Shown: in pieces, positions 1 to 63,691 of the stretch
How positions within the stretch are numbered: the stretch's first letter is position 1
Layout: every line of letters begins with the position of its first letter
Origin: a virus
Lineage: Duplodnaviria; Caudoviricetes
DNA length: 64,000 nt
Virus record (IMG/VR): IMGVR_UViG_3300037313_001869
Location: 32,001-96,000 of that record
Strand: one strand, 5' to 3'
Notes under the pieces: generated by a model
What the model was told of the DNA's origin: nothing
The model's database searches: none
The model's input: the letters and a program-made list of their open reading frames with translations, nothing else
Position numbers and translations under genes: made by a program

Positions 1-450
1 GACGACCTCACGATCGAGCAGTACCGCGAGCTGGGGCGTGAGGTCGAAAAGAAGCTCACGAAGGACGGGCTCATCGGCGTCCCGAGGTCGACCAAGAAGA
101 GCAAGACCGCCGAGGCCAAGAACGCTTCGAGGCGCCTCTCCTGGATGATCATGCAGGATGACTGGAAGAACCCTGTCTCCCGCCTGGTCAGCAAGGACCT
201 GATTCCGTTCCAGGTCGGCCTCCACACGCACTTCCAGCTCCTCGCCGGACGGGGTGGGAAGCTGCCCGAGGGCTTCTTCGACATGGCTTCGGAGTTCGCC
301 TTCATCCACTTCAAGCTCATGATGGTCCGGCACATGTGGCGCGTCTCGACCAGCGCCGGGCCCCAGTTCGGAGACTGGAAATCGCACATCGACTTCCACG
401 CGAGCATGGCCAAGATCGCGAGGGAGTGCCGCAAGAAGGACCGCGAGTGA
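1..450 (+). CDS. hypothetical protein (5' partial)
   Basis: Open frame from base 1 to TGA at 450; GC3-rich codons; GTGA overlap with next gene. Confidence 0.75.
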   Translation, partial: DDLTIEQYRELGREVEKKLTKDGLIGVPRSTKKSKTAEAKNASRRLSWMIMQDDWKNPVSRLVSKDLIPFQVGLHTHFQLLAGRGGKLPEGFFDMASEFAFIHFKLMMVRHMWRVSTSAGPQFGDWKSHIDFHASMAKIARECRKKDRE

Positions 451-671
451 CCACCACCTGGGTCACGCCGGGCGCCCTCGCTCACCGGTGTGACGAGCCC
501 GAGGTCGCCTCGTGGATCGTCACCGAGGTGTACGAACGGCAGGTCGAGATCAAGCACCTGCGCACCGGCGAGACCCTCTGCCTGAACACCCGGCATTTCT
601 GCGAGAGATTTACCCAAGTCTCTCGCGGCGACCGGTTCGAGCGCATCGCCAACAATATGGAGATCCTCTGA
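447..671 (+). CDS. small beta-barrel-like protein with RFER tag
   Basis: GTG start overlaps upstream TGA; ends DRFERIANNMEIL. Confidence 0.75.
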   Translation: MTTTWVTPGALAHRCDEPEVASWIVTEVYERQVEIKHLRTGETLCLNTRHFCERFTQVSRGDRFERIANNMEIL

Positions 672-673
672 CC

Positions 674-1015
674 ATGCCAACCGACGAAGAAGTCTGGGCT
701 GCCCTCGACCTCATCATGAACCCAACCTTGCCCCCGTGGGCGGTGACAGGGGCAACCGCCTACCACCGCGGGCTCAATGCGTTTTTGCGCATCACCGAGA
801 TCGACGCTGACCGCGTGGTCTTGCAGCCGGTCAACCTCGGCCAGCGTTACTCTCGGGGGGTCGTGCTCTCGAAAAGCGACTTTCTGAGCCTGTGTTCCGA
901 GCGCATGGAGTGCCCCCGGGGCGGGGAGCTTCTCAAGTACGAGCCCGACCTGACCGTCACCTTCCCCAAGCCCGAGCCCCTGCCGAACCGCTTCGAGCGC
1001 GAAGACCCGCTATGA
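674..1015 (+). CDS. hypothetical protein, PPW-module family, C-terminal RFER tag
   Basis: LPPWAVTG module; ends PNRFEREDPL. Confidence 0.8.
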   Translation: MPTDEEVWAALDLIMNPTLPPWAVTGATAYHRGLNAFLRITEIDADRVVLQPVNLGQRYSRGVVLSKSDFLSLCSERMECPRGGELLKYEPDLTVTFPKPEPLPNRFEREDPL

Positions 1016-1530
1016 GCCTTGTCCGTCTTCTCACCGTCCAGGACGCCGCCCATTGGCGGCGTGCTCGGCAAACCAGGGTCCTCACCGGCGGGAGCGGCTC
1101 TCACGTCGACATCGATTGGCTTCCGGCCTACGACTGGATGCGGGGCCAGATGCGCCGCCGGCTCCCGAGCTTCTCGGGAGACTACCCCGTCTGGGCCTGG
1201 CCCGACACGACCCCCGAAGAGGTCCGCTCGCGCGGCGGGTGGGGCAACGGGGGCGAGGAGATGGTCCTTCTCACCTTGGAGGTGCCCGCCTCGCGTGTGC
1301 TCCTCTCGGACTTCCTCGCCTGGCATTCGGTTCTCAACCACACGGCCATCGGCATCGACGATGACCGGGCGACGCCAGCCGAACGCGAGGCGAGCTGGGA
1401 GCGCATCTTCTACCCGGCCAAGGTCGACTGGACCGACCGGGACGTGATCCAGGCGTGCATCGACCGGGTCTACCTGCCCGAGATCGTTTCGGAGACCTAC
1501 TTCGTCGTCGAGCCGGACGAGTCGGTGTAG
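1012..1530 (+). CDS. DUF3841-like protein
   Basis: AYDWMRGQM..YPVWAW and VLLSDFLAWHSVLN motifs; ATGA overlap. Confidence 0.75.
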   Translation: MSLVRLLTVQDAAHWRRARQTRVLTGGSGSHVDIDWLPAYDWMRGQMRRRLPSFSGDYPVWAWPDTTPEEVRSRGGWGNGGEEMVLLTLEVPASRVLLSDFLAWHSVLNHTAIGIDDDRATPAEREASWERIFYPAKVDWTDRDVIQACIDRVYLPEIVSETYFVVEPDESV

Positions 1531-1541
1531 TAGCCGGGGCG

Positions 1542-1748
1542 ATGACCTGCCCCCACTGCGATCAGCCCCTCACCGAAGGCGTGACCCTCTACCACGAAGG
1601 CATTGCCATCGGTCGTGTGCCGTTCTGCGGGGCCTGCGTCGAGAACGCCGGGCCCGAGGCCAAAGGCGAGGTGTGGACGGTCGCCCCCGCCGTCGGCTAC
1701 AGCACGCCGCTTGCAACGGCGTTCGTGTACGCGACGATGAGGAACTAG
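1542..1748 (+). CDS. small CxxC...CxxC zinc-binding protein
   Basis: CPHC/CGAC; CGGTGTA motif 12 nt upstream. Confidence 0.65.
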   Translation: MTCPHCDQPLTEGVTLYHEGIAIGRVPFCGACVENAGPEAKGEVWTVAPAVGYSTPLATAFVYATMRN

Positions 1749-1751
1749 CCT

Positions 1752-2642: not shown

Positions 2643-2686
2643 GCCCCCTCGATGCGCGACCCCTCCGGTATCTGACACGGTGTAGA

Positions 2687-4473: not shown

Positions 4474-4884
4474 ATGACGCTCCCCATTTTGATACAGGCT
4501 TCGGACGGCCAGGTCGACTACCGCGACCGCGACATCAAGGCCCGCCTTCTGCTTCTCATGAGCGTGCCTGTTGGCCGCTACGACGCGAGCGAGGGCGGGA
4601 AGTACAAGAGCCGTTCCCTGGAGAACTACTGGCTTCAGATCGCGGCCTGGTACGTCTTCGGGCTCGGGGTGCTCGACGTGAGCTTCTCGCTCACAGGTAG
4701 CGACTCCCCGCCCGAGGAGCTGAAAAAGGCGATGCCTCGTGTGCTTTTGCCGATCGCCGACTGCTCGGCGGCGACACAGCAGGCGGTCGAGATCATCCGG
4801 GAGCAGTCGGCCCGGTGGTTCGCGGAGGCCGAACCGGTTCTCTCGAAGCTGTCGTTCTTCACGCTGGCGAGCAAGACGCCATGA
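4474..4884 (+). CDS. hypothetical protein
   Basis: CGGTGTA 9 nt upstream; ATGA overlap downstream. Confidence 0.75.
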   Translation: MTLPILIQASDGQVDYRDRDIKARLLLLMSVPVGRYDASEGGKYKSRSLENYWLQIAAWYVFGLGVLDVSFSLTGSDSPPEELKKAMPRVLLPIADCSAATQQAVEIIREQSARWFAEAEPVLSKLSFFTLASKTP

Positions 4885-5570
4885 AGCCGATCATCTTCTG
4901 GCACTCGCCCGAGACCATCCCCGCCGAACTCTACGCGGAGTTCGGCGGCTCGTGCGGCTGTGACGGGGCCCTCGACGACGGCTGCCCGCTCTGCACCAAA
5001 GAGAAGAAGGCCGAGTGGCTCGCCCAGCGGGAGGCAAAGGCCCGGTGGGGGGAGCACGGCCACGCCCGGGACCGGGGAGATCGGGCCTCGCTGCTCAACC
5101 CCCGCTTCATTGTGGGGGAGCTGGACCCGGGCATCAACAACATGCTCGTCCTTGGCGAGTCGAACGTGTCGTGGGAGGGGGCGTTCTTGGATGCAGCCTT
5201 CCGGCAGATGCGTTCGGGAAAGGACGTGCTGCCCCTTCCGATCCGGGCAGGGACCATGAGCCCTGAGGTCGACCTCTGGGTACCCAACGCCTTCACCGAC
5301 GACTGGGAAGAGCTGCGGCCCGCGACACGCATCATCCAGGTCGGTACCCGCGAGGCATTCATAGTCGGTTCGGTCAACGACTACGAAAGCGTCGCCAAGG
5401 TCGCGAGGGTCTCGGCCATCAACCTTTTGCCCCGGCCGGTTCACGCGGACAAGGTGCCCTACGAGCCCTTCCGCTTTCGTGAGCACGCCATGCACGAATG
5501 GCGTTACCTCTGCGCCTACGCCGGGTCCGGGTTTCGGCCGGCCCGCTTCGACAGGGAGCCCCCGCTATGA
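4881..5570 (+). CDS. hypothetical protein with RFDR tag
   Basis: Ends PARFDREPPL. Confidence 0.75.
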   Translation: MKPIIFWHSPETIPAELYAEFGGSCGCDGALDDGCPLCTKEKKAEWLAQREAKARWGEHGHARDRGDRASLLNPRFIVGELDPGINNMLVLGESNVSWEGAFLDAAFRQMRSGKDVLPLPIRAGTMSPEVDLWVPNAFTDDWEELRPATRIIQVGTREAFIVGSVNDYESVAKVARVSAINLLPRPVHADKVPYEPFRFREHAMHEWRYLCAYAGSGFRPARFDREPPL

Positions 5571-7625: not shown

Positions 7626-8138
7626 ATGGCGACAAGCTACATCAAAGATCCGTACGTCTACCTCGCGGCCCAGCTTTTCGGCGTGAAAGACGAAGAGGTG
7701 ACGTTCGACATGCGCGAGGCCATGAGGCGCGCGGTCAGCTACGCGGCCGAATCCGGCGCCCCTGCCAAGGTCCGGTTCTCGCTGCTTCGGCAGCACCTCA
7801 ACGGCCTGGGAAACCACCTCGACGGCATCAAGCTCCCGTTCACGCTGACCTGTGACCAGGGGAACATCGAGGCGCTTCTCGACTACTTCGCGACGCCGAA
7901 GACCGGTCCGTCCGAAGTCTCGCCGGGCCTCTACGAGCACTTCAAGGGCACGCGCTACCGGGTCCTTCTTGTCTCCCGCGACTCCGAGAGCCGGGAGAAG
8001 CGCGCCATCTACACCCCCCTGACGCCCGAGGAAGGGTGGGACGGGGTGCCGTGGGACCGTCCGGTCGGCATGTGGGGCGACCTTGTGAGGTGGCCCGACG
8101 GCAAGTACCGTACGCGCTTCGCCCGCGTGAGCGACTAA
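7626..8138 (+). CDS. DUF1653-domain protein
   Basis: PGLYEHFKGTRYRV...WDRPVGMW...RF; motif upstream. Confidence 0.75.
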   Translation: MATSYIKDPYVYLAAQLFGVKDEEVTFDMREAMRRAVSYAAESGAPAKVRFSLLRQHLNGLGNHLDGIKLPFTLTCDQGNIEALLDYFATPKTGPSEVSPGLYEHFKGTRYRVLLVSRDSESREKRAIYTPLTPEEGWDGVPWDRPVGMWGDLVRWPDGKYRTRFARVSD

Positions 8139-8634: not shown

Positions 8635-9045
8635 ATGGACTTCGACTCACTCATTGGACGGGAAGTGGACTTTTACGGGGTCGACAACAATCGCTTTCGG
8701 TTGGGTGTGACCGCCAGTGAGAGCGTGACGTTCGAGGCCATCGAAGACCCGAACGACGGCTACCGATCCATGATGGAAGAGATCCGCGTCGTGACCGACG
8801 GCTCCGGCATCTTCTTTCGCTACCCCATCGCTCGCGTCCGGATCGAGCGAGTCCAGGATTCGTTCGCGGGCTACCTCTTGCGGGACGTGGCGCGTGACCA
8901 TGTTTGGCTCAAGGTCGGGACCAGCAACACGGGCGACTACTATCCCTACTTCACGTTCGATTACACGGTCTGTGAGAACTTCGTCCATGACGACAACCCC
9001 GAGCCGACGGGCTCGCCGCGGTACGATCGCGAGGACGTGCTGTGA
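8635..9045 (+). CDS. hypothetical phage protein with RYDR tag
   Basis: Motif 10 nt upstream; ends SPRYDREDVL. Confidence 0.8.
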   Translation: MDFDSLIGREVDFYGVDNNRFRLGVTASESVTFEAIEDPNDGYRSMMEEIRVVTDGSGIFFRYPIARVRIERVQDSFAGYLLRDVARDHVWLKVGTSNTGDYYPYFTFDYTVCENFVHDDNPEPTGSPRYDREDVL

Positions 9046-10421: not shown

Positions 10422-10988
10422 ATGCCAGACTTCTACCCAGGGGGAATCGTCTTCGAGCGCGGCACGGGTGCGCGGGGGTTCGTCCTCGACTCGATCGACA
10501 GGGACACGAGCAACCCCGAGGCCGAAATGCGGGTTTGCTACACCTCCGGGGACCGGCCGATCTACCGGCACGTTCGGGTCTCGAACTGGGAGATGGCCCC
10601 TCGGTCCCGCTACGACCGGCTCCTCGAACCCGATGGCCCCGATGGGTGCTGGCACGGGGTGCGGCCGAAGTGGTTTCTCTGGCAGGGGCCCCAGGGCTTC
10701 TACCCGATCAACGTCACGTCCGACCTCCCTTTGCAGAAGGTGGCTGGTAAGGGGGACTTCTGGGCCTTCCGGGCCCCGCGTGGCTTCTTTCGGGTGAAGA
10801 CCCTGTGCAAGAAGTCGGTCTACCGGATAGGCTACGTCCGTCTTATCGAGCCCAACTACTACGCCGTCTGGCCCGTGGGGCCTCAGGCTACCCCTGGGGC
10901 AAAATGGAAGAGCTGGGTAACCCGGGCGCTCTCGCGCGTCGGTGTAAAGACGGTACCCTATGCCTACCACCTGGAATCTGCACTTTGA
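10422..10988 (+). CDS. hypothetical protein with internal RYDR motif
   Basis: CGGTGTC 10 nt upstream; PRSRYDRLL after the first module. Confidence 0.7.
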   Translation: MPDFYPGGIVFERGTGARGFVLDSIDRDTSNPEAEMRVCYTSGDRPIYRHVRVSNWEMAPRSRYDRLLEPDGPDGCWHGVRPKWFLWQGPQGFYPINVTSDLPLQKVAGKGDFWAFRAPRGFFRVKTLCKKSVYRIGYVRLIEPNYYAVWPVGPQATPGAKWKSWVTRALSRVGVKTVPYAYHLESAL

Positions 10989-11859
10989 CGGCGAGACGCT
11001 CAACGAGCGGATCGAGTGTCGAGGCGAGGTCGAGCACCTTCGAGGCCACCCCGACGTAGAAGGCGTCGAGGTCGAGGCCCGTGAGGCGTGCTTCCACCTG
11101 ACCGTGACCTTTCGAGAAGGGGTCGAGCCGAAGCCCCGACTTCGACAGCGTTACGACCGCAGGTTCTCGACCGAATGCACTCGGTACGTTCCGCGACCGT
11201 GGCGGTCTCCTACGGATCGACAACGAGACGGCATCATCCGTCGAGCGCTTGCTACTCCCGAGGGTAGACAGCGACTCGCCGCGTCCATGGTCAATCCGAT
11301 CCGAACGCGGATCGACTACCAGAGCGTTGCCCGGCGAGCTTTCCTGGTCGAGCCGCTCCAGACCGGGGCTCTGCCCACGTACGATCGGGACCAGGAGCTA
11401 AACAGCTACGACCTCGGGACGGCACCCAGGCGCGTCCAGGTCCCGAATTTCGAGCTGGCCGCGAACCCGACGGTCCAACTGGCTGACATCCGGGAGCGCC
11501 GCTTCAACCTCATCGACCGGGCCACGTCCCGGACCGTCCAGCAGATCCAGGCGACCGAGGATCAGGAAGTCTTCTCGGCCCTCGACACGGCGACGCAAGA
11601 CCTGGTGGTCGAGCCGTTCCAGCAGCTCACGCGCGAGGCCCTCGAAGAGGTGCAGGCCCTCATCAACGCGCAGAGCATCCCCTCTTCGTCGCTCTTCATG
11701 GCAGGCGTTGACCACGGCGATCTGATCAGGTCCCTTCGGCTCCCGAACGAATACCTGCCTCCGGAGAACCCTTGCGCCGAGCAGGCTCTCGAAGCTTCCG
11801 GCCCGGAGCTTCCCCCGGTCCCGAGCCGGTTCGATCGGGTGCTGGAAATGGCGGCCTGA
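10960..11859 (+). CDS. major capsid protein-like (truncated paralog) with RFDR tag
   Basis: ALATPEGRQRLAASMVNPIRTRIDYQSVARRAFLVEPL...VPNFELAANP...RRFNLIDRA recalls large-phage HK97-fold capsid proteins; ends PSRFDRVLEMAA. Confidence 0.55.
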   Translation: MPTTWNLHFDGETLNERIECRGEVEHLRGHPDVEGVEVEAREACFHLTVTFREGVEPKPRLRQRYDRRFSTECTRYVPRPWRSPTDRQRDGIIRRALATPEGRQRLAASMVNPIRTRIDYQSVARRAFLVEPLQTGALPTYDRDQELNSYDLGTAPRRVQVPNFELAANPTVQLADIRERRFNLIDRATSRTVQQIQATEDQEVFSALDTATQDLVVEPFQQLTREALEEVQALINAQSIPSSSLFMAGVDHGDLIRSLRLPNEYLPPENPCAEQALEASGPELPPVPSRFDRVLEMAA

Positions 11860-11891: not shown

Positions 11892-13187
11892 TCAGCTTGC
11901 AAGCTGCGGCGTTTCTTGGAGCTGGACCTCGCCGCTCGGGGCCGCGACCACCTTCGGTTTGCGGGTGCGCTTGGGCTTCGGGGTCTCGGTCTTGGTGGGG
12001 TCCACGGCCCCTTCCTTGGCGAGGGTGTCCTTGACGGCAGGCTTGGTGCCCGTGGCTTCGCCCTTGATCTCGTGCATCTCGTCGATGGCTGCGAGCACCT
12101 CGGCGAACGAGTCGTAGTTGAGCTGCTCGGCCGCCTCACGCAGGTAGTCCTGCGACATGCCCTCGGTCTTCTCGACCAGGAGGTTCAGCTCCTTATCCGA
12201 GAGCTTGCCCTCGGGGAGGTAGCCGGAGAGCACGACCCTGCGCTCGGCCGGCGTCGGAAGCTTGAAGCGCCGCACGAGAAGCCGGCCCGGCCGGACGAAG
12301 CCAGGGTCCATGCCCTTGGCCGAGTTGGCCGTGAGGATGATGGTCGTCTCGGGGTGCGTCGCCTTGACCCGTTCGAGGATCTCCAGGATGGTCGGCATGA
12401 CCTTGGCAAGATCGGCCTTGTCCACGTCGTCGAGGATCATCACGTCCGGGGCGAGCTGGGTCAGAAGGTCGCCGAACTCCTTCGCCCGGACATGCAGGAG
12501 CGAGGTCGCGTCCATCTTGCAGGTCCGGTAGCCAAGAGCCTCGGCGAACCGGAGCGCGAAGGTCGTCTTGCCCGTGCCCGGAGCGCCGAGAAAGAGGTAC
12601 GTCTTGGCGACGTTGTCCTTCAGGTACCGGAGGTGGCGGATCTGAAACGCCTTCAGGTCGCCCTGGGCCTTGCCGTAGAGCGGGTTGGCGCTCCGAGGGA
12701 ACGTCTCGTACTCGGTCTTCGTCCGCCACCCGTAGGACGAGACCGAGACATGAACCCGACCCTCGTGCTCGCCCCAGAAGCGCGCCATCACGGGTCCGAA
12801 CTGGAGGCCGGACGAGTAGTAGTAGTTCTCGTCGACCTCGCCGTTGCACGCGCTGAAGTAGAGGGTGCCCGAGCCGTCGAGCGCCGTCGCCTCGATCACC
12901 GTCTCGTACGGGGTGAGTGCGTAGCGCCGGGTCGAGAAGGAAGCGCCGAGCGGGGTCTTGAAGAAGAGGGTGACGAACTGCTCGCTCCGCCGGGGCTCGA
13001 AGCCCCGGTCGCGGGCCATTTCAGCGAGGCTTGTGTAGGAACCCATGCCGATCGAATGCACCGACTCGGCGATGGCTACAGCCTTGACGACCACCGCCAG
13101 CGGTCCGTCGTCCTTGGTCGGGAGCTTCTGGACGACATCGCTGGCGATCCTCAGAACTTTGCGGAGCTTGAGCGGGAGAATGAGCAT
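11892..13187 (-). CDS. AAA+ ATPase
   Basis: GAPGTGKT, ILDDVD, TAN, DPGFVRPGR. Confidence 0.9.
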   Translation of the reverse strand: MLILPLKLRKVLRIASDVVQKLPTKDDGPLAVVVKAVAIAESVHSIGMGSYTSLAEMARDRGFEPRRSEQFVTLFFKTPLGASFSTRRYALTPYETVIEATALDGSGTLYFSACNGEVDENYYYSSGLQFGPVMARFWGEHEGRVHVSVSSYGWRTKTEYETFPRSANPLYGKAQGDLKAFQIRHLRYLKDNVAKTYLFLGAPGTGKTTFALRFAEALGYRTCKMDATSLLHVRAKEFGDLLTQLAPDVMILDDVDKADLAKVMPTILEILERVKATHPETTIILTANSAKGMDPGFVRPGRLLVRRFKLPTPAERRVVLSGYLPEGKLSDKELNLLVEKTEGMSQDYLREAAEQLNYDSFAEVLAAIDEMHEIKGEATGTKPAVKDTLAKEGAVDPTKTETPKPKRTRKPKVVAAPSGEVQLQETPQLAS

Positions 13188-20817: not shown

Positions 20818-21063
20818 TCAGAGGGCTTCGGGGCGGTCGAACCGGGCCGGCACGGGCTCGAACTGGTAGACCTCGTGAAAGCCGAACCTCAACCACTTCT
20901 CCCGGCCGGGCTCCCGCACATGGAACGTCTCGGCCTCGGGGTCGACCCGGGCGACGAAGAGCCGCCGATCCGGCGAGTCCCTCCAACGCAGCTCGTTGTC
21001 GAGGACAAGCCAGGTCGGCGGCTTCCAGTCAGGGAAGGCTTCGCGTAGGGGCCTACGCGACAT
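20818..21063 (-). CDS. small protein with RFDR tag
   Basis: Ends PVPARFDRPEAL. Confidence 0.75.
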   Translation of the reverse strand: MSRRPLREAFPDWKPPTWLVLDNELRWRDSPDRRLFVARVDPEAETFHVREPGREKWLRFGFHEVYQFEPVPARFDRPEAL

Positions 21064-23476: not shown

Positions 23477-24415
23477 ATGCCCCGTCCGACCAACATGCCC
23501 TGCTGGGCTGTCGAAGGCGCTACCATCGAGCCGGCCTCGAACCAGGCTCAACTTCGGAACGACCACGGCCGGATCGTCTCGGCCAAACTCTATGCCGCCG
23601 AGCATCCTGGGATGGCCCTCGTGATCGACGCGGTTACCGACGAAAACCTCATCGTCCGCGTGGGCTCAAAGACCTTCACGGTGGCTTACGACACCGCCTT
23701 CTCGACGAGCTGGCGGCTCGTGGGGACCGTGCCCGAGCGGGTCCAGCCCCCGAGCTGGCTTCGCACCGGGATGGCCATTCGCTACCAGGGGGCGGCCGAG
23801 GGGCCCGCTGTCTTGCACAACGTGGGCGAGATTCGCTTGCGGGGCACGTTCCGTAACCGCTTCGGGGTCGAGCGGATCACCCGGCAGTACGTCGAGGTGA
23901 TCAACGCCGACATCGCTGGCAGTCTGCGGGCCCCTCTGACGGCCGATTTCGCGGTCAACTGGGGCCCCTGCGTCGGAGACGGTACCGCCCCGGCCCCTGC
24001 CTGGCTCCAGGAGGGCTCGTACGTGCGGCCGAAGGACAACGACGGCCAGCCGCTCAACACCTACTCGTTCCTGGTCACCGAGGTGGCGACCACGTTCTTC
24101 CGGGCGCAGCCGGTCTACAACCACGGCGTACTCGGTCCGGCCATTCAGTTCCCCATGGGGACGGCCGAGGATGCTTGGGTGCTCGCTCCCGACGACCCGA
24201 AGACGCGCCGCGACTACAAGCCTGGCATGGTCCTGCGTAGCCGGCGGACCGGGGAACTCGTCGAGATCAAGACCATCGACCCCGGCACGGGCGCCTTTAC
24301 CGTGGGCAGTCTCCGCCAGCAAATCCGTACACTTACTCCTGGGGAAGGGGAGTTCGTCCTTCAGGAGGACCAACCGGTGGAGAACGTGCCCGACCGCTTC
24401 GGGAGGATCGAGTAG
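23477..24415 (+). CDS. multi-module KOW/SH3-like protein with RFGR tag
   Basis: Repeated P-x-W-L-x-x-G modules; ends PDRFGRIE. Confidence 0.8.
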   Translation: MPRPTNMPCWAVEGATIEPASNQAQLRNDHGRIVSAKLYAAEHPGMALVIDAVTDENLIVRVGSKTFTVAYDTAFSTSWRLVGTVPERVQPPSWLRTGMAIRYQGAAEGPAVLHNVGEIRLRGTFRNRFGVERITRQYVEVINADIAGSLRAPLTADFAVNWGPCVGDGTAPAPAWLQEGSYVRPKDNDGQPLNTYSFLVTEVATTFFRAQPVYNHGVLGPAIQFPMGTAEDAWVLAPDDPKTRRDYKPGMVLRSRRTGELVEIKTIDPGTGAFTVGSLRQQIRTLTPGEGEFVLQEDQPVENVPDRFGRIE

Positions 24416-25572
24416 TGCCCCCGCTTGGGTCCTGGGTTTATGAAGGGGTGTATGCCATCTCCCCCGAGGGCGCCGTTCGGTGCATCGTCAACGTCCGAGA
24501 CGACCGGTTCACCTCGGCGCCTCCGCTGACGTTCAGCTACGACCGTCGAACGCACCCGATGCTGGAGGCGGCCCGCTGGACGCCGCTCACCGCTTTCGAG
24601 GCCGAGGTCATTCGGGGCCTGTCATTTGGGCGGCATGTTCACTACAGCAACATGCCCCAAGGGGTGGGAGCCACCTTCGATCCGGTCGCTCGGATCGAGG
24701 GGGAGCTTCCGCCCTGGTACGTCGTCGGTGGCCGGTGCAGGGTGCGCGGCGACAGCCTGATGACCTACACCCTCTTCGATGCCGGTCGATCCCAGATGGC
24801 CTTTCGAGAGAACGCTGGGCCCGGGCGACTCTTTCAGTGCTCGGCGCCGGGGGCCATCCGGCTGTTCGAGGCGGTACCTGGCCCCTGGGAACGTCCCGCT
24901 ACCGAGCCCCTCTACGCGATCTCTTGGCAGAGGACTCCGCCCCCGCCCGACCCTCCGCCTGCAAACGAGCTTCTCCGGGTTGCCGACGAGGTCACCCATG
25001 TGACGAGGAAGATCCGCGTGGCGTTTGGGGTCGGGGACGACGAGAAAGAGGGGGTCACGTTGGAAGCCGAAACCGTAGCCCCGCATCCGAACTCGCCCTT
25101 TTTCAAGGGGGCGATTGTGCTAAACGACAAGGGCTACGCCTACAAGGTCGAAAACGTCGAGGTCGAGAATGGCACGCCTTCGGCCATTCTCATGTGGGAC
25201 CTCGACCGGTCTTCACTGCCCCATGCCCGGCCCTACTCGCGTCGCTACCCAATCCCTGTCCCGCTCACCTGGGCTGCGGACATGCCCGTTCCCGCGGGGC
25301 TGACCGAGGAAGACTGCTCGCTCTTCGACGAGTTGAAGACGGGGCAGGTTCTCGTGGACCTCGACTCGCGGCGTATTCTCGTGGTCGTCGGATTCCTGGT
25401 GACGGGTGACGAGAACCGGAAGACGCATTTTCTGATCGAGGAGGCAACGAAGGGCCCCGGAGAATCCAATCCCTTTCAGGTGGCCTCTGAGCCGGTTCGT
25501 TCCCGGTGGGTCGCACTTGGGCCCCATCGCAAGCCCCCGTCTCGGTTCGACCGCCTTGGGGAAGACCTCTGA
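24415..25572 (+). CDS. multi-module KOW/SH3-like protein with RFDR tag
   Basis: LPPWYVVGG, FFKGAIV, LKTGQVL modules; ends PSRFDRLGEDL. Confidence 0.8.
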   Translation: MPPLGSWVYEGVYAISPEGAVRCIVNVRDDRFTSAPPLTFSYDRRTHPMLEAARWTPLTAFEAEVIRGLSFGRHVHYSNMPQGVGATFDPVARIEGELPPWYVVGGRCRVRGDSLMTYTLFDAGRSQMAFRENAGPGRLFQCSAPGAIRLFEAVPGPWERPATEPLYAISWQRTPPPPDPPPANELLRVADEVTHVTRKIRVAFGVGDDEKEGVTLEAETVAPHPNSPFFKGAIVLNDKGYAYKVENVEVENGTPSAILMWDLDRSSLPHARPYSRRYPIPVPLTWAADMPVPAGLTEEDCSLFDELKTGQVLVDLDSRRILVVVGFLVTGDENRKTHFLIEEATKGPGESNPFQVASEPVRSRWVALGPHRKPPSRFDRLGEDL

Positions 25573-25955
25573 TGGAGACCCCGCTCCGTATCGGTTCGCT
25601 TCTCAAGCACAAGCAGTCCGGCGATGCCTACCTTGTGAAGGCCATCTCTGGCGTGGGTAGCTACCAGGTCGAGCGGCAAGACCCGATGCGGACGCGCTAC
25701 TGGTACCAAGTATCCCAGATCCCCGAATACTTCGAGATCATCCCCGACCCGCCTCCGTGGCTCAAGACCGGGGCGAAGATCATCGACCAGAGCAACAACC
25801 TCTTCGTGGTGAACGCGGTTCTCGGGCGACGGGTCGTTCTGCGAAGGTCTGCCGGGCGAGACGGACTTGGGGAGCTTGTCGAGACTACGCTCGACGATGT
25901 GGTGAAGGACTGCCGGCCCGTCGACTTCCGCCCTACCCGTTTCGATCGCATCTAG
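25572..25955 (+). CDS. two-module KOW/SH3-like protein with RFDR tag
   Basis: LRIGSLL, PPWLKTGAKI; ends PTRFDRI. Confidence 0.8.
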   Translation: METPLRIGSLLKHKQSGDAYLVKAISGVGSYQVERQDPMRTRYWYQVSQIPEYFEIIPDPPPWLKTGAKIIDQSNNLFVVNAVLGRRVVLRRSAGRDGLGELVETTLDDVVKDCRPVDFRPTRFDRI

Positions 25956-27169: not shown

Positions 27170-27562
27170 ATGGCGTCGTACACGGTCGCGCAGGTCTACA
27201 CGCACGAGGTAGCCGCCTGGGTCACCCTCCTTACGGCCCAGGCCGTCCCGGGGCTGCTCGAAGGGCTTCTCAAGAAGGACTACGAAGTTGCCTCCCTCTC
27301 CGAGACCCTGACCCTTCGGAGTGAGGTGAGCGCGGTCGTGGGCTTGTGGATCAAGCGTAAGGAGTCGACTGCCACGCTCGACCCCTACAAGGTCCGGGAC
27401 GATATCCAGCAAGTCTTGAATGAGGCCCGCTCGACCTTCTTCTCGATCGTCGTGGCGCACATTGGAGGGGCCGGCTGGACCGGGTCGAACCTCATCCTGC
27501 TCAAAGAGGCCCCACCCCCTCCTCCGGACGAAGACGAAGAGCCCCCGCCCCAGCTTCACTGA
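27170..27562 (+). CDS. hypothetical protein
   Basis: ATG 3 nt after TTA, preceded by GAGGA. Confidence 0.7.
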   Translation: MASYTVAQVYTHEVAAWVTLLTAQAVPGLLEGLLKKDYEVASLSETLTLRSEVSAVVGLWIKRKESTATLDPYKVRDDIQQVLNEARSTFFSIVVAHIGGAGWTGSNLILLKEAPPPPPDEDEEPPPQLH

Positions 27563-36194: not shown

Positions 36195-36826
36195 TCATCG
36201 TTGAGGATTTTGCTCCACCGATCCGATTCCGAACGCAACGAACTTGAGGTTTCTTCTCCTTTCTTACGATGCCAGGTCAGGAAGGGGTCGCTTGAAGGGT
36301 GATAGCTCATCGAAAGCCCCGTATGAGCGTGGTTGTCGTAGTGAAGTTCGACCCACCCCCCATTCCGGATTGACCCCAGGTAGTTGAACACCTCTCCGGG
36401 CCCTGCGAGCGGAGCCATCCCCCGGTTGGCCACGATCTCTGCCCCCGGTTCGACCTGGATGCGAAGCTCCAGGTACCGGTCCCCTTCTCCGTACCAGCGA
36501 GGCGAGAGACGGACGAAGCGGTCAGAGCAGTAGAAGACTTCGCCTACGCCTCCGGCTAGGCAGACGGTGCGGACTTCCAGCTCACTGCCGACTCGACAGT
36601 GTCTCGCCGGCAAGCTCGTGTGGAGGGACGCCCTGCCTTCTCCGTCGGGCGTGAAGGGGAGCGCCTTACGGCCGCGTTTGCCGACTTGGTAGAGAACCCC
36701 GTCGGCCCCTCCCTCATTCTCCTGAAAGGACAGATGGCGCGTCCGGATCTTCAGGATGGGCTCGATATCGTCGAGCGTGGGTGCGATTGTGATGAGGCTC
36801 TCATCGAGAGCCAGGTGGATGCTCAT
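36191..36826 (-). CDS. hypothetical protein
   Basis: Packed ORF; ends SDRWSKILNDD. Confidence 0.65.
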   Translation of the reverse strand: MSIHLALDESLITIAPTLDDIEPILKIRTRHLSFQENEGGADGVLYQVGKRGRKALPFTPDGEGRASLHTSLPARHCRVGSELEVRTVCLAGGVGEVFYCSDRFVRLSPRWYGEGDRYLELRIQVEPGAEIVANRGMAPLAGPGEVFNYLGSIRNGGWVELHYDNHAHTGLSMSYHPSSDPFLTWHRKKGEETSSSLRSESDRWSKILNDD

Positions 36827-36890
36827 ACAGAAGTCGTCGTACAGACAGACCAAACATCCCGGCCTGGCACTCCGCACAAGCCACCCCAGA

Positions 36891-37778
36891 TCAAGCGTCC
36901 TGGAGGAGACGTACGAGTGGCGGACAGCGTCGCTTGATCCGTTTCTCCTCGGTCTTTGTCCGATGCCAGCCAACCACTAGCCCGATCGGGCTCCCGAGCG
37001 CGGCCCACTTCGAGGCGGCCGAGAGCAGTACGTAGAGGTCGTCCATGCCTCTGCGGGCCTCAATGTCTTCGAGCCCGTCGAGCACGACGACGAGCGACCC
37101 GATCAGCCGGTTGTGTCTCGCGAGGGCGAGCAGAAAGAGCAGGGCCTCGATCCGGTCTCCGTCGTCGAGGCGGTCGAGGGGGCCCGAGAGAATCGCGTCG
37201 TGCGCTTGCGCTTCCTCCCCTTGCAGCCACCGAACCAAGGTCTCGAAGGTGCTTCGCGCGGCTTGTTGCTCCCGCTCACCCATGGCCACGGCGTAACGAA
37301 GGTCCCCGAGCAAGGCCATGGCTTGTGCGTAGACCGAGTGTCGTCGATCCGCGAGGTCGAAGAGCTGCTCGGGTCGGGCAAGGTGGTTCACAACCCCGAG
37401 GCCCCAGAGGAGCTGCCAGCCCTCAATCCCAGGGGGCAGCCCTGCCACGTAGGACTCGGGCTCGCGGCACTCGATCGGAACCGGGCATCGCCGAAAGGCC
37501 GCTGTCAGAAAGTCAGCGCTGCGCCCTCTCCAAGAAGGGTCAGCCGAGAAGAAGGCCACAGTCCCAGGGCTGAAGATGGCTTCTTCCCGGGCGACCCTTT
37601 GGTAGAGTGCGTCTCGATCTCGCTGCTGACCGGTAACGAGCAGAAACGGCCGAGACCCTTCGCCGATCCTTCGCGACCACGCCACCGTCTCGTGCAAGAC
37701 GGCCGTTTCGATGATCGAAGGAAAGGGCCGAGCGCCCCGCAGGTCTTCCCAGTAGTCCTCCACGTCGAGCTTCGGCAT
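36891..37778 (-). CDS. hypothetical protein (possible degenerate P-loop fold)
   Basis: LVVVLDGLE is Walker-B-like; no clear Walker A. Confidence 0.65.
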   Translation of the reverse strand: MPKLDVEDYWEDLRGARPFPSIIETAVLHETVAWSRRIGEGSRPFLLVTGQQRDRDALYQRVAREEAIFSPGTVAFFSADPSWRGRSADFLTAAFRRCPVPIECREPESYVAGLPPGIEGWQLLWGLGVVNHLARPEQLFDLADRRHSVYAQAMALLGDLRYAVAMGEREQQAARSTFETLVRWLQGEEAQAHDAILSGPLDRLDDGDRIEALLFLLALARHNRLIGSLVVVLDGLEDIEARRGMDDLYVLLSAASKWAALGSPIGLVVGWHRTKTEEKRIKRRCPPLVRLLQDA

Positions 37779-49721: not shown

Positions 49722-50125
49722 TGCCGACCCTCGGTCCTTTGCCCGACCTCGACTTCGATAGCGCCTTGCCGTCAAGTCCGCCCGAGTACGGCGGCCTGAC
49801 GGCCTGGTTGACCCCAGACGGGCGCGTCTCGGCCGTCCCTGTCTCTGGCCTGACCCACATCGGCCGGCTCGCTCCTATGCCCTCCTCCGCCACGCTGCTG
49901 CCCGTTCGGATCACCCCGCCCATGCCGACGACCGAAGAGACCTGGGACGCGCTCGTGCGATCCATCGAAGAGGTCAAGGCCGGCCGGCCACCTCGAACCG
50001 AACTCGAACATGCCTTGGCCGAGGCTATGCGTCGCAACCGGGAACGAGCCGAACAAGAGGCACAGGCAGAGATTTCACGGCCCACGCGACATGACCGGCT
50101 CGCCTCGGGCGACGATATCCTGTAA
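49721..50125 (+). CDS. hypothetical protein with RHDR tag
   Basis: TGATG overlap; ends PTRHDRLASGDDIL. Confidence 0.7.
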   Translation: MPTLGPLPDLDFDSALPSSPPEYGGLTAWLTPDGRVSAVPVSGLTHIGRLAPMPSSATLLPVRITPPMPTTEETWDALVRSIEEVKAGRPPRTELEHALAEAMRRNRERAEQEAQAEISRPTRHDRLASGDDIL

Positions 50126-50136: not shown

Positions 50137-50364
50137 GTGACCCTCGCGGACGAGATCGAGCACGACTGGCGCTTCACCCTCCTTCGGCCGTTCCCGAAGC
50201 CGCACAGGGAGGAGCGTGACCCGAACGCCCCTCCGAAGTCGATGATGGAGCAGGTTTTCGAGGACCTGTCGAGGAAGATCGCGGCGGAGCTAGACGAGGA
50301 GATCCTGGGGTCGATTCCGGAGCTTCCCGTCTACCCCTCCCGCTTCGAGCGCCTCGCCGCCTAA
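50137..50364 (+). CDS. small protein with RFER tag
   Basis: Ends YPSRFERLAA-TAA. Confidence 0.7.
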   Translation: MTLADEIEHDWRFTLLRPFPKPHREERDPNAPPKSMMEQVFEDLSRKIAAELDEEILGSIPELPVYPSRFERLAA

Positions 50365-53977: not shown

Positions 53978-54523
53978 ATGTCCTCTGTCACCGTGCTGAT
54001 GCGCCGCGACTACCAGCTCGTCGAGCAAGCGCTCCCCCGAGACACCCTGGTCATTCAGGTCCCGACCGAGTACGGCTGGGGCTCACCCGACGGCAACCTT
54101 TACGGCGTCGAGATCGAAGAGGTGCTCCCTCCCTCCCGAGGGCTCCGAAGCTACCGCCGCGAAGCCCGAGCCCAGACCGAGAAGCGCTACCGCCTCCGGT
54201 TCTCCGAAAGCTCCGCCCGGTACGTCCGAGCGATTCGCGGGCCGCTAGAGAAGTTCGTGATGGAGCGACGGAAGAAGGCCGATGTTCGAGAGTACGTCGA
54301 GATCGAGGTGAAAGCCTGCCGGCTCGGCGACCTCCCCGAAGGTGCCCACGCCCTTCTCGAACACCGCGACGAGGACGACGATTTCTCGTGGGAAGCCCTC
54401 CGCGTCCACCGAGTGCCCCCGACCCGCAAGCAGGTGGAGAAGGCCGAAGGCAAGATCCGCTACAAGCAGCGGGCCTACCTCCGGCTCCCGACTCGGTACG
54501 ATCGCCTCAGCGCCGAGGACTTA
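53978..54523 (+). CDS. hypothetical protein with RYDR tag (ends at TTA)
   Basis: Ends PTRYDRLSAED then TTA at 54521, coinciding with convergent TAA. Confidence 0.7.
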
Positions 54524-56289: not shown

Positions 56290-57492
56290 ATGCGCTCCAT
56301 GGAACTCCGCCTCAACGACCAGCTTCTCTACCATTCGACCTTCGACCCAGCGACGGGCAACCTCGTCCGCGCGGTCGAGATCGGCGAGAGGTACGATTCG
56401 CCGTGGGATGTGCATGGCAAGTCCGACGAGGACAAGGCGTGGAAGGCACGCTACGGCTACCGCCACGGGCCGTTCTCGCCCTCGCCGGAGCTGGTGGACA
56501 TCGCCATCACCGACAAATGCTACATGGGCTGCACCTACTGCTACCAGGACAGCCGCCCGAAGCGCGACCACGCCCCGAAGGAGCTGGTCGAGAAGATGAT
56601 CCAAGGCTTCGATTACGCCCCTTACCAGGTCGCGATCGGCGGCGGCGAGCCGACGCTTCACCCTGATCTGCCCTACATCCTGCGGCGGGCACGGGAGCTG
56701 GGCTCGGTACCCAACTACACGACCGCGGGCGATCAGATCCGCGAGGACGTGATCGAGGCGACCAACGAGGTCTGCGGCGGCGTCGCCATGACCTACCACA
56801 GCTTCAAGGGCATCGACTGGTTCGTCTCGCACTACCAGGCCCTTCGCGACCGGCTGAAGGTCCAGCTCAACGTCCACCTCATCGCTGACAAGGACGTGGC
56901 CACGAACCTGCTCGCGCTCTGTTCCCGGTACAAGGAACTCGGGCGGCTCCGGCTCGTCCTGCTCGCCTACTACCCTGACGTGGGCCGGGCGTCGATGGAC
57001 CGGCTCCTCGCCAAGCGTACGTACATGAAGGACCTGCCCGAGGCGATCAAGTTCGCCCGCGTCTCGGGCTTCGACATTGCCTTCAGCGAGGGGCTCCTTC
57101 CCTTCTTCCTCTCGCGCCCCGGTCTCGGGGTCGAGACGAAGTTCGCGATGGCCGTCGAGGGCAAGTTCTCGTGCTACTTCGACACGCGCGGCCGGATCGC
57201 GGTATCGAGCTTCGACCACCGGGGCCTCAACTGGGAGCGCGACGACGAGGTTCGCCCTACGGTCTTCACCCACAGCTCGCAGAGCATGTGGGACAAACTC
57301 TGGGGGAGCCACACCAGCCCTCGGGGCGACGCCTGCTACGACTGCGCCCAGCGGCCGAGGTGCGCGACGCCCCACGACTTCCACTACTTCGTCTGCGCCT
57401 TCGCCCAGCACAACCAGACGCCGCTCCGCGAGCCCGACGTGACCCCCGAAACCGCCCACGACCGCGTCCTCAAGGACGACGAGGTGATCTGA
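56290..57492 (+). CDS. radical SAM protein
   Basis: CYMGCTYC, GGGEP; C-terminal Cys cluster. Confidence 0.92.
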   Translation: MRSMELRLNDQLLYHSTFDPATGNLVRAVEIGERYDSPWDVHGKSDEDKAWKARYGYRHGPFSPSPELVDIAITDKCYMGCTYCYQDSRPKRDHAPKELVEKMIQGFDYAPYQVAIGGGEPTLHPDLPYILRRARELGSVPNYTTAGDQIREDVIEATNEVCGGVAMTYHSFKGIDWFVSHYQALRDRLKVQLNVHLIADKDVATNLLALCSRYKELGRLRLVLLAYYPDVGRASMDRLLAKRTYMKDLPEAIKFARVSGFDIAFSEGLLPFFLSRPGLGVETKFAMAVEGKFSCYFDTRGRIAVSSFDHRGLNWERDDEVRPTVFTHSSQSMWDKLWGSHTSPRGDACYDCAQRPRCATPHDFHYFVCAFAQHNQTPLREPDVTPETAHDRVLKDDEVI

Positions 57493-57881
57493 TGCCTCTC
57501 CTTCTCTCCATCAACACGAGCTTCATCACCAACAGCAGCTCGGCCGTTCACCACTTCCCGCGCGAGCTTCTGAACGACCCGTCCATCCGGGCCTTCATCG
57601 CGGCGTTCGAGCTGGATGGCGGCGTCATCGGCTCGGACATGTGGTCGCGTGACCTCTGCACGACCGTGGCCATGACCCCCGAGCAAAAACAGGAGGTCCT
57701 CTCCAAGCTCGTCACGGGTTCGGAGTATTGCAGCCCTCCGTCCATCCAGACCGACGACGACACGATCCTCATCATCTACGGTGACGAGCACACGAGCGTG
57801 GCCTCGTCGCTCGCGCGGCTGATGGAGTCAGTGGCCGAGAAGCTGGGCATCAAGCTCCAGGGCAGCCAGGAGTACAACTTA
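57492..57881 (+). CDS. NSSS-motif protein (ends at TTA)
   Basis: TGATG overlap with rSAM; SFITNSSS; TTA at 57879 coincides with convergent TAA. Confidence 0.7.
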
Positions 57882-59448: not shown

Positions 59449-59489
59449 CCTCTCCGGGTAGCCCCGGATCGCTCGGTAATCCTTCGATC

Positions 59490-59525: not shown

Positions 59526-59554
59526 ACCCTGCGATCCGGTGTCTTGGAGAGAAG

Positions 59555-60415
59555 ATGAGCAGAGCACAACCTTTCCTGAAGTGGGCTGGCGGCAAGAGGC
59601 AACTTCTCCCCGCCCTTCTCCAGCGGCTTCCGTCGGAGATGAAGACGTACTACGAGCCCTTCCTCGGTGGTGGTGCGCTCTTCTGGGCCCTTGACGCCGA
59701 GGACGCCTTCGACCGAGCCGTGGTCGGGGACATGAACCCCGAGCTGGCCAACGCCTACCGGCTCTTCGCCGGCCCGGCCCATGGGGTCGAACGGGTGGTC
59801 GAGCTGCTGAAGGGCTACCCCCACACGCGCGAGTTCTTCGAGGACATGCGCCGGAAACTGCCGCACGAGCTGGGCGAAGCCGAGCGCGCAGCCTGGCTCA
59901 TCTACCTGAACCGAACGTGCTTCAACGGCCTCTACCGGGTCAACAAGATGGGGGTCTTCAACGTGCCCTTCGGCGACTACGAAAACCCGACCATCTGCGA
60001 CGAGGACAACCTGCGCGAGGTGGCCGAAGCCTTGCGCAACCCTCGGCTGACGTTCATGCAGGCAGACTTCGAGCAAATCGTCCAGACGGCCGAGGCTGGG
60101 GACGTGGTCTACTTCGATCCGCCGTACTTGCCCCGAAGCGATACGGCCCGATTTGCCGAGTACGTCGTCGATGGGTTCGACATGGCGAAGCACGAACGAC
60201 TCGCCAGGGTCTTCGCCGACTTGGCCAACCGAGGGGTTGGCGTGCTCCTGTCGAACTCGGACACGCCCGCAACCCGGGAGCTGTACCGGGACTTCCAGAT
60301 CGACACGGTCTACGCCAAGCGAGCCATCAACGCCAAGGGCGACAAGCGGGGGCCCATCCCCGAGATCCTGGTCTCGGCGAACCTGACCCCCGCGCCCGCT
60401 GCCGAAGTCGGCTTA
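59555..60415 (+). CDS. dam: Dam-family DNA adenine methyltransferase (ends at TTA)
   Basis: PFLKWAGGK, EPFLGGG, YFDPPY, LLSNS, EILVSAN; 286 aa if TTA is a stop. Confidence 0.92.
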
Positions 60416-61692: not shown

Positions 61693-61694
61693 GG

Positions 61695-62204
61695 TCAGCC
61701 CCCCTTCAGAGCGTTGCGCTTGGTTCGGATGGCATCGAGCAGGGCATTGCGAAGCGGCGGACTCACCACCTCATCGATGCGCTTTCGGTTCGCCTCGTAC
61801 CAGGTGGCGAGGTTCTCGTAGGTGCCGATGGTCTCCAGCTCCATCATGAGCTGCTTCTGCGTGTCGTACTCGCCGAACTGCTTCGGAGGATCGACGAACT
61901 GACTTGCCGCACCCCCCGCCTGCGCCGCCTCGGGGACCTCTCGCAGCCGCTCGACCACGTCCGTCACCTTCTGCGCCACGTCGAGCGACGAGAGCAGGGC
62001 GGCGTACGACTGGGTCTTCTGGTCGGCAGGGGCCGAGGAGAAGATGTGCCCGAGGTGCAACCGGAGGGCGTCGAAGGCGGCCATGAAGGCGTTGAGCTGG
62101 GCCTGGGTCTGGAGGCCGGGAACTTGCGCCTTGAGCGCCTCCATCATCATCTTCTCGGCCTCGGGCGGAAGCGGGCCGGGGGGCATACCGGGAATCATGT
62201 TCAT
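61695..62204 (-). CDS. hypothetical protein
   Basis: GAGGA RBS; ATGA overlap. Confidence 0.75.
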   Translation of the reverse strand: MNMIPGMPPGPLPPEAEKMMMEALKAQVPGLQTQAQLNAFMAAFDALRLHLGHIFSSAPADQKTQSYAALLSSLDVAQKVTDVVERLREVPEAAQAGGAASQFVDPPKQFGEYDTQKQLMMELETIGTYENLATWYEANRKRIDEVVSPPLRNALLDAIRTKRNALKGG

Positions 62205-62509
62205 GTCCTCTTTGTGAGATTCTTCGATCTGGCCTGCGCGAGCAGGCGTTGCTTGAACTTCTCGGCCACAGCCCCGGCATTCGGCACGCCGATTGAACGG
62301 AGCTGTACCTCGACCACACCCTTCATCAGGTTCGCGGCCCGCTCGGGGTCTTCGAGCATCCGGAAACAAGGGCGACAGTAGACGTACTCTTCGGGCGGGT
62401 CGACCTCGCCCATGGCCCGCAGCGTCTCGCGCTCTTCGGCCGTCGTGGCAAACACACGGCACGTCGCCTTGTCACGCTCTCGGCGGCACATCGAGCAGCT
62501 CACACGCAT
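62201..62509 (-). CDS. CxxC...CxxC protein
   Basis: CSMC / CRPC. Confidence 0.7.
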   Translation of the reverse strand: MRVSCSMCRRERDKATCRVFATTAEERETLRAMGEVDPPEEYVYCRPCFRMLEDPERAANLMKGVVEVQLRSIGVPNAGAVAEKFKQRLLAQARSKNLTKRT

Positions 62510-62515
62510 TCGATT

Positions 62516-63154
62516 CTATCCCTTTTCTAGGTAGTCCTGCACAAGGACAGAATCGATCTCGTCGAGTTGAAGCTTACCCATCTCGACCTGCTCGGCGAGC
62601 AGGAGGGCCTGGCTGATGGGCATGGCCGGAAAGCGAACCCCGTGCTCTTTCAGAAGAACGGCCTGCTTCGCGTGGTAGTCGTCCACGGCTTCCTCCCGCG
62701 GCACGAGCCGGGTACCTGGGCCGAGCCGGTGGGGGTGGCAGTTGTACGGGTCGCTCGTCGCGAAGTAGGTTCGGCAGACGAAAGGCCGGGCGTCGTAGGC
62801 GACGCAGAGGTTCTTCTCGTCGAGCAAGGGGCAGGGCGTGAGCGAAAGAAGCCACACCTGGAAGGTCACGCCGCTCTGGGCTTCCTGGGCCTCGGCGAGC
62901 TTCTTTCGGAGCCGCGAGGTCCATACCCCTTGCTTGAAGAGCCAGCGGTAGATGCCGATGGCTTCGAGGATCGAGACCAGCACCGGGTGGTAGCAGCACG
63001 AAGCGCAGCCCGGCGTGCAGGTGATGGTCTCTCGGGCCTTCGAGACCCGTTCTCGCGCGGCCATCTCGAACCGCATCCCAGCGTCGGTTCGGAGGACCTC
63101 GGAGGCGGCGATCGATCGTTCAACGAGCACAGGCAAACGGCGCTTCGGGGGCAT
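62516..63154 (-). CDS. YkgJ-like CxxCxxCC Fe-S/Zn cluster protein
   Basis: CTPGCASCC, CPLL, CVAYDARPFVCR. Confidence 0.85.
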   Translation of the reverse strand: MPPKRRLPVLVERSIAASEVLRTDAGMRFEMAARERVSKARETITCTPGCASCCYHPVLVSILEAIGIYRWLFKQGVWTSRLRKKLAEAQEAQSGVTFQVWLLSLTPCPLLDEKNLCVAYDARPFVCRTYFATSDPYNCHPHRLGPGTRLVPREEAVDDYHAKQAVLLKEHGVRFPAMPISQALLLAEQVEMGKLQLDEIDSVLVQDYLEKG

Positions 63155-63691
63155 TCAGTCGTCTCCGACGATGTCATCGGCTTCGCGCGTGAAGCGAGAG
63201 ACCGGTTGGGGCAGGGGCTTGGCTTCGGGTCCGGGGGCCTGGGCCCGGGCCACGCGCTCGGCGACGGTACCGAAGCCGTTGGGGATGGTGATCCGCCCGA
63301 GTGAGCCGTTGCGGAACGTGCCGATCAGGACCTCGCCCGGACGAAGACCGAGCGCCGGGTTGAAGAAGAGGGGGCCCCCCGCCCGCAGAGGGTCGGCCTG
63401 CATCCAGTCCTCCCACGGCCGAAGCTCCCGCCCCCGGCTCGCCAGCCCCGCCGGGACCGCGACCTTGATCAGCGGCCCGGTGGTCAGCTTCTTCGAGGGG
63501 CAGGCGACCATCGGCCAGTCCGGGGGGTGCGCAAAGAGCTTGCACGTCTCAGGCTCGTCCTGGTCGAGGGTGTCGGGCACCTCACGCATCCCCCCGTCCC
63601 GGCCCAGCAAGATGGCCAGGCGCGTCCCTGAGTCGAGCCGGAGCACGTAGTACCGGGCCCCCTCGTAGTCGATGAGGTCTCCCGGCCTCAT
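63155..63691 (-). CDS. KOW-like protein with RFTR tag
   Basis: MRPGDLIDYEG; ends PVSRFTREADDIVGDD. Confidence 0.75.
   Translation of the reverse strand: MRPGDLIDYEGARYYVLRLDSGTRLAILLGRDGGMREVPDTLDQDEPETCKLFAHPPDWPMVACPSKKLTTGPLIKVAVPAGLASRGRELRPWEDWMQADPLRAGGPLFFNPALGLRPGEVLIGTFRNGSLGRITIPNGFGTVAERVARAQAPGPEAKPLPQPVSRFTREADDIVGDD

Follow-up and report, generated by a model that had tools for sequence, protein, structure and literature searches.

The stretch of DNA analysed here (the window, 64,000 nucleotides) covers bases 32001-96000 of a virus record that is circular, 435,218 bp long and derived from an uncultured jumbo phage with 65% GC, and many unrelated genes within it end in one short peptide, the tag, whose strict core is [ST/P]-R-[FY]-[DE]-R, with Ser, Thr or Pro before the Arg. 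A first-pass annotation had quoted 19 such peptides, and all of them translate at their coordinates and on their strands. The stop codon that follows is TAA, TAG or TGA in 16 cases and TTA in three (30240, 32309 and 54523). Across the genome the core lies mostly 8 residues (47 proteins) or 5 residues (11 proteins) from the end of the protein, and the 8-residue class usually finishes with Val, Ile or Leu.

The loci below lie on the plus strand unless the minus strand is named. Near the start of the window a 74-amino-acid orphan (447-671, tag 630-671) is followed by a 113-amino-acid orphan with a tag of the 8-residue class (674-1015, tag 983-1015), a 116-amino-acid protein whose orthologue in the related genome G002 is tagged too (1752-2102, tag 2070-2102) and a 229-amino-acid orphan (4881-5570, tag 5538-5570). 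The 136-amino-acid protein at 8635-9045 (tag 9013-9045) belongs to a widespread family, and its linker and tag are appended; 59 homologues are without this tail. An internal copy of the tag was found at about 10605-10627 in a 188-amino-acid protein (10422-10988), and the 190-amino-acid product of 11287-11859 (tag 11821-11859) is paralogous in part to the major capsid protein of the phage itself, with 45% identity over 110 amino acids. Further along lie an 81-amino-acid orphan on the minus strand (20818-21063, tag 20850-20818) and a 312-amino-acid orphan that ends in the variant R-F-G-R (23477-24415, tag 24389-24415). The tag at 25537-25572 ends a long open reading frame (ORF, from about 24241) that the gene caller missed (GC content at third codon positions, GC3, 0.73). 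The 127-amino-acid protein at 25572-25955 has a tag of the 5-residue class (25932-25955) and tagged family members in G001-G003, and the 92-amino-acid protein at 27562-27840 (tag 27808-27840) has a G003 orthologue without the tag. Three genes end at TTA: those for a 115-amino-acid protein with the weak variant R-F-D-K (29893-30240), for a 250-amino-acid protein whose orthologues carry a variant tag (31557-32309, tag 32271-32309) and for a 181-amino-acid orphan (53978-54523, tag 54488-54523). A 182-amino-acid orphan on the minus strand (32905-33453, tag 32928-32905), a 103-amino-acid orphan with the variant R-F-D-K (33567-33878) and a 75-amino-acid orphan (50137-50364, tag 50335-50364) are also tagged; the last had looked by eye like a capsid fragment, which was not supported on comparison. 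The peptide with a His variant at 50081-50125 is present, but the ORF that it ends is doubtful (GC3 0.56). A radical SAM protein (56299-57492) carries a weak tag, and a clear tag ends its G012 orthologue. Finally, the minus-strand gene g152 (63155-63691), a core gene of the phage family, encodes a protein built from a Tudor/KOW-like and a further beta domain, followed by a helix, the linker and a tag helix.

In total, 17 of the 96 genes called in the window scored as tagged, and the peptides ending at 25572, 50125 and 30240 are additional, having been missed or scored low by the gene caller. The peptides at 24415, 30240, 33878 and 63155 are variants that fall outside the pattern P-x-R-[FYH]-[DE]-R under which the first-pass annotation had listed them. 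Of the weaker matches that it had proposed, the one at 57492 was supported by the tagged orthologue, those at 35634 and 36191 fit loosely and that at 58731 does not fit. The region 35634-36976 (minus strand) holds open frames missed by the caller whose ends loosely fit the family-wide motif described below, and one of these frames has a zinc-ribbon-like segment. A match at 7626-8138 was excluded as the probable native terminus of a DUF1653 protein. No Rfam RNA and no tRNA was found in the window, and the genome as a whole has 44 tRNA calls.

Genes were called with a self-trained dicodon model, which gave 613 proteins with TTA taken as a stop. TTA is used as a stop codon in this genome, since most in-frame TTA codons have non-coding signal downstream and since ClpX is 446 amino acids long with TTA as stop versus 484 by read-through, the median of its homologues being 424. 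It serves as the stop in about 71 genes; a search for a phage release factor found none. The relatives G001, G003, G009 and G012 and the uncultured phage LR745208 read TTA as Leu, and in G002 and G008 the codon is rare, yet present inside coding regions. Seven convergent gene pairs appear to share a single 3-bp stop that reads TAA for one gene and TTA for its partner on the opposite strand (2100-2102, 8136-8138, 32307-32309, 50362-50364, 54521-54523, 57879-57881 and 60413-60415), and five of these pairs include a gene scored as tagged.

Genome-wide, R-[FY]-[DE]-R occurs within the last 16 residues of 79 of the 613 called proteins, against 0.98 expected from its internal rate (p about 6e-119). 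When this key test was repeated under the standard code, with TTA not a stop, 71 of 539 proteins were tagged against 0.91 expected, and a six-frame count made without gene calls gave 90 occurrences versus 1 in a scrambled control. A profile scan detected 97 carriers, 16% or about one in six of the called proteins, concentrated outside the structural and replication block at 120-260 kb. The tag is therefore real and more extensive than the occurrence on about 20 unrelated proteins that was first reported. Its description needs some correction: Pro occupies position -2 in only 35 of the 79 proteins and His is rare, and beside the 79 C-terminal copies there are five N-terminal and several internal ones. 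The Pro-rich linker noted before the tag was confirmed (19% Pro versus 6% genome-wide). The mutual support that had been seen between the tag and the TTA stop is weak, because tagged relatives read TTA as Leu and internal positions are tolerated; the tag exists without TTA and is independent of the recoding, and the TTA stop rests on separate evidence.

The observation that codons vary and that conservation lies at the protein level held in tests of third positions, GC range and orthologues. Third codon positions of the tag carry little information, distant tags share codons about as often as codon usage predicts, and the same peptide occurs in phages spanning 48-65% GC. Orthologues of the G001 carriers were found from the protein bodies alone, ignoring the tag; by pattern the tag was kept in 52 of 58, and four of the remaining six end in near variants. 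Between orthologues the tag core was 95-99% identical and the bodies 39-76%, and identical residues showed a synonymous codon change in 51% of cases in the tag versus 40% elsewhere. The tag is thus a genome-wide short linear motif under protein-level selection. A signal in DNA or RNA, either a ribosome-binding site serving the downstream gene or a site at which genes are captured by recombination, could draw on the 24 of 47 genes of the 8-residue class that are coupled to the next gene, often with purine-rich codons about 10 nucleotides before its start, and on some synonymous excess inside the G003 arrays. However, the low third-position information, the constancy of the peptide across the GC range and a rate of synonymous change at or above that elsewhere largely refute such a signal as the main cause, and we regard it as very improbable. 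The most that ribosome binding could shape is the acidic residues that follow the core, not the core itself; where the genes of an array are translationally coupled, the acidic codons may also serve the next gene as its ribosome-binding site.

Similar peptides were detected in related phages. The family-wide pattern is [ST]-x-[FYW]-[DE]-x-[LIM]-[LM] followed by acidic residues, and each genome uses one dialect of it. The RFxR dialect of the present genome was counted 56 times in G001, 45 times in G003, 18 times in G002 and 8 times in G009. G008 uses S-R-F-D-[LM] (11 versus 0 in the control), and the dialect [ST]-x-W-[DE]-R-[LI] (TxWxR) was found in G012 (22 versus 0) and G013 (16 versus 0). 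No tag was found in LR745208, and the cultured relatives Tunturi_5 and phage G showed no excess of this genome's dialect, to which the clear metagenome matches lie within the same phage clade. A V-x-[ED]-S-stop tag was not enriched in this phage family. The major capsid protein, which is of the HK97 type and has close relatives encoded on hundreds of IMG/VR contigs, is 83% identical to that of LR745208, 47% to that of Tunturi_5 and 38% to that of Bacillus phage G. It reaches 90-95% identity in phages that are only 49-58% identical in their other core proteins, and the capsid tree gave no resolved order of the dialects. A GroEL query for the host gave nothing in GTDB, and capsid matches in metagenome-assembled genomes were rejected as a host pointer, those genomes being unrelated and probably mis-binned.

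The gene g152 was present in every near-complete tagged genome and was not found in LR745208. In its predicted model (predicted local distance difference test score, pLDDT, 85), two beta domains, the first of them Tudor/KOW-like, are followed by a helix and a loose linker, and the tag appears as a short helix within the low-confidence tail. The general motif ends 122 of 150 g152 homologues versus 9 in shuffles, with the consensus T-[AV]-[YF]-D-[RH]-L-L-x-D, and the tail is retained across at least 150 clusters. By sequence, the accessory tags are dialects of this g152 tail, and the simplest reading of the distribution is that the tag was copied from it. Foldseek gave no match for g152 at E 0.001, and the ESM Atlas no usable one; the best matches to its Tudor fold include CarD and the UvrD C-terminal domain, with middling Z scores of 7.1 and 6.5. 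At 61695-63691 (minus strand) g152 is grouped with a CxxCxxCC-domain gene and a gene for a helical protein in a block that is conserved, and in most relatives g152 lies 5-12 kb from ClpX.

The carriers are mostly small, mutually unrelated, folded proteins of 50-400 amino acids that are scattered over the genome. The bodies of the 97 carriers fall into 90 clusters, one of which Pfam names, and 88 have no homologue in seven relatives. Only two carriers are core genes, compared with 162 of 516 untagged genes, and one of the two counts as core through its likeness to the capsid protein. A transmembrane helix was predicted in 12 of the 276 carriers of seven genomes. Among the carriers are RecA-derived proteins (one with a modest likeness, E 1e-5 and 22% identity), the partial capsid paralogue, the radical SAM enzyme and, outside the window, a protein with a weak likeness to terminase (E 0.022). 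The upstream motif GGTGTA, typical of non-structural genes, precedes 21 of 97 tagged versus 4 of 102 structural genes; a CTTAT-type motif precedes 1 of 97 tagged versus 19 of 102 structural genes. We infer that these motifs are early and late promoters, respectively. A tandem array of about 30 co-oriented genes, nearly all tagged, was observed at L067:4026-19337 and L068:251-1745 (G000 385.6-402.9 kb); its products have 110-200 amino acids and can barely be aligned to each other, and no usable match was found in the ESM Atlas for an array protein. Each genome has several truncated capsid-protein paralogues, both tagged and untagged (window 11287-11859, G000 330577-330939, and others in G001 and G008), which are possibly decoys or assembly inhibitors. 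The paralogue in the window adjoins a gene for a 431-amino-acid AAA ATPase, possibly BCS1-like, at 11892-13187 (minus strand), with a clear homologue only in G001.

We propose that the tag serves as a short helix for docking, tethered flexibly to its carrier, and is the ligand of one shared cytoplasmic partner, a reading that we consider somewhat better than even (a probability of roughly 0.55). A single pocket is suggested because the peptide is predicted to form a short, capped helix in which aromatic, acidic and hydrophobic positions are fixed, follows a flexible linker, tolerates different positions in the protein and is uniform within each genome; the argument draws on known short linear motifs. 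Of the roles listed in the first-pass annotation, docking to a hub fits best, while capsid packaging and a degron at the free C-terminus are disfavoured. The g152 tail would have been copied onto newly acquired or degenerate genes, and, early or midway through infection, all tagged proteins would dock in the cytoplasm of the host cell on the surface that binds the g152 tail. Each carrier might then act as an adaptor, in which a variable domain (an orphan beta fold, an SH3/Tudor-like domain or a membrane anchor) binds a target that the constant tail then carries to the hub. The truncated capsid-, RecA- and terminase-like pieces could act as baits.

ClpX and a Ycf46-like AAA+ ATPase are encoded in all near-complete tagged genomes and were not found in the untagged LR745208; the phage ClpX has a zinc-binding domain and is conserved in tagged genomes. 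ClpX is also expected in the host, and SspB is a Clp adaptor with a ClpX-binding tail. Because of this co-occurrence and because a phage adaptor of the Clp ATPase ClpC is known, namely Gp53 of SPO1 (PMC6873191), an adaptor role was taken as the working model. Like SspB and Gp53, the carriers would combine a binding domain, a flexible linker and a docking peptide; unlike in the Clp adaptors, this putative docking peptide is of another sequence, is a predicted helix and exists in about 100 copies rather than one. As the hub, a phage AAA+ ATPase (ClpX or Ycf46-like) and a host protein are both tentative and about equally probable choices, some other hub is possible but a little less so, and the phage DNA or transcription machinery is unlikely. 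More speculatively, about 100 fast-evolving binders with a g152-type helix, including baits from the phage's own capsid, recombinase and terminase genes, might form a modular adaptor system that delivers host defence or rival-phage proteins to a phage AAA+ unfoldase or protease, as a counterpart of F-box proteins with genome-private dialects; we think this full version improbable.

Several observations weigh against the docking model and the candidates named for it. The dialect of the g152 tail is not always an exact match to the main dialect of its genome, and copying from g152, rather than parallel origin, is inferred from the distribution. The presence pattern of ClpX and the AAA+ ATPase is common to 82 genes and was seen against a single untagged genome, so that both are no more than candidates for the partner, and when 119 core genes were screened for divergence in genomes with other dialects, none stood out as a hub. 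A ClpP homologue (G000 274091-274564) was found only in this genome of five tested. Untagged capsid-protein fragments exist, and the bait idea is therefore not tied to the tag. A pooled complex prediction, in which a tag peptide was offered the putative clamp, the N-domain of the AAA protein and the zinc-binding dimer of ClpX together, scored 0.02; its design lay outside the calibration of the tool and gives no evidence either way. Around the candidate hubs we noted a gene for the Ycf46-like ATPase with DUF1257-like and small partner genes (L053:3108-5472, minus strand), a stand-alone copy of the N-terminal domain of this ATPase inside the tagged region (L050:14490-15191, plus strand) and long insertions in ClpX of G001, G002 and G010, where they are intein-like by Pfam, and in the AAA gene of G001.

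Other explanations account for part of these observations. Tagged early proteins could be substrates that the phage ClpX clears later with host or phage ClpP, which would agree with the conserved ClpX, with carriers that are small, non-core and outside the structural module, and with the fixed spacing of 8 or 5 residues to the end in most copies. An ssrA-type degron needs a free C-terminus with small non-polar final residues, whereas the tag also occurs in N-terminal and internal copies, Asp/Glu make up 32% of the residues that follow its core and Lys/Arg 1%, and the endings AA, AL or AV were seen in only 5 of the 79 proteins; moreover, a conserved core protein, g152, keeps its tail. A degron is thus unlikely. 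The aromatic-x-x-hydrophobic-hydrophobic spacing resembles that of clamp-binding plugs, although as a resemblance only, and the tag might instead tether accessory proteins to phage DNA through the sliding clamp or the transcription machinery, as the CarD and UvrD matches of g152 and a conserved, putative clamp-like gene of 410 amino acids would allow. Clamp-binding peptides are known from T4/RB69 gp43, gp33 and gp55, where they are C-terminal, and as PIP boxes; like them, the tag is a predicted short terminal helix with three hydrophobic residues on unrelated proteins. In contrast to these systems, the carriers are accessory orphans that include membrane proteins, and the profile scan of seven proteomes found the motif on no polymerase, clamp loader or other replication enzyme. 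The 410-amino-acid candidate has no Pfam clamp match, and LR745208 has a homologue of it despite being untagged. We consider tethering through a clamp or the transcription machinery rather improbable. Separately, a NusG/KOW domain is fused to a 5'-3' exonuclease in a 617-amino-acid protein at L059:9785-11635 (minus strand).

Loading of injected proteins into the capsid has a precedent in T4, where the targeting signal is N-terminal, is cleaved and serves packaging. The T-even internal proteins IPI, IPII and IPIII carry a capsid targeting sequence, which is all that these diverse anti-defence proteins have in common (PMC3012670), and the tag resembles it as one short peptide that a common partner would read on diverse, fast-evolving phage proteins. 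It differs in being mostly C-terminal (79 versus 5 N-terminal copies), position-tolerant and present on about 100 proteins, transmembrane ones included. No virion structural gene is tagged, head and scaffold proteins included, and the upstream motif of structural genes is nearly absent from tagged genes. An invariant stretch of the major capsid protein (L058:5952-6827, residues 107-116) contains R-F-D-L-I (residues 110-114) and resembles the G008 dialect; it is, however, constant across dialects and also present in untagged LR745208, with a similar stretch in phage G. We therefore consider capsid loading quite improbable. A general tail for solubility, protection from degradation or attachment to membrane surfaces, with no specific partner, would suit an acidic, Pro-rich and portable peptide for which no partner was found, but the near-invariant Arg, aromatic and acidic positions and the genome-specific dialects point to a specific pocket and make such a tail still harder to credit.

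Three further systems were compared with the tag. The vWA-MoxR ternary systems include peptide-processing modules of RxD and acidic types (Kaur et al. 2020, PMC7159879), and the likeness lies in small, rapidly diverging proteins with a conserved C-terminal peptide and in the occurrence of R-x-D and acidic residues, the phage also having vWA genes. Unlike these modules, the carriers are scattered and folded and do not form one precursor beside a zincin peptidase. No MoxR was detected, the AAA_5 matches being ClpX, a clamp-loader gene and a lone AAA gene, and the module was rejected because no MoxR coupled to vWA was found; carriers gave no Pfam match to a zincin peptidase, no zincin family search having been run. 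A conserved vWA protein (L061:254-1843) ends in a basic tail whose last residue is Trp in each of the six genomes encoding it. In the poxvirus ankyrin/F-box (PRANC) proteins, variable binders share a constant C-terminal module that recruits one machine, an analogy only with the viral repertoire seen here; PRANC, unlike this tag, belongs to the eukaryotic ubiquitin system and is a larger module on one scaffold family. The GpsB/DivIVA ligand motif (S/T)-R-x-x-R fits the dialect of this genome, not SRFDL or TxWxR, and a search for a phage DivIVA found none. The tag works like T4 targeting, Clp-adaptor tails and clamp peptides, yet it fails a defining test of each that could be run.

We found no description of the tag in the open literature searched; added here are its probable source in a core protein, the genome-specific dialects, a test for selection and the finding that the tag does not depend on TTA. 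Jumbo phage genomes consist mostly of small orphan genes of obscure function, and in this one a single peptide connects roughly one protein in six. Identifying a single partner would place about 100 proteins at once in a common step, and the tag lists the clients in every relative. The switch of dialect between close relatives, with capsid proteins 90-95% identical, provides natural matched and mismatched pairs for the partner search, and g152 is one well-defined bait for it. Should the hub prove to be an unfoldase or a protease, the tag would represent a new phage counter-defence route and a portable tag for targeted degradation in bacteria.

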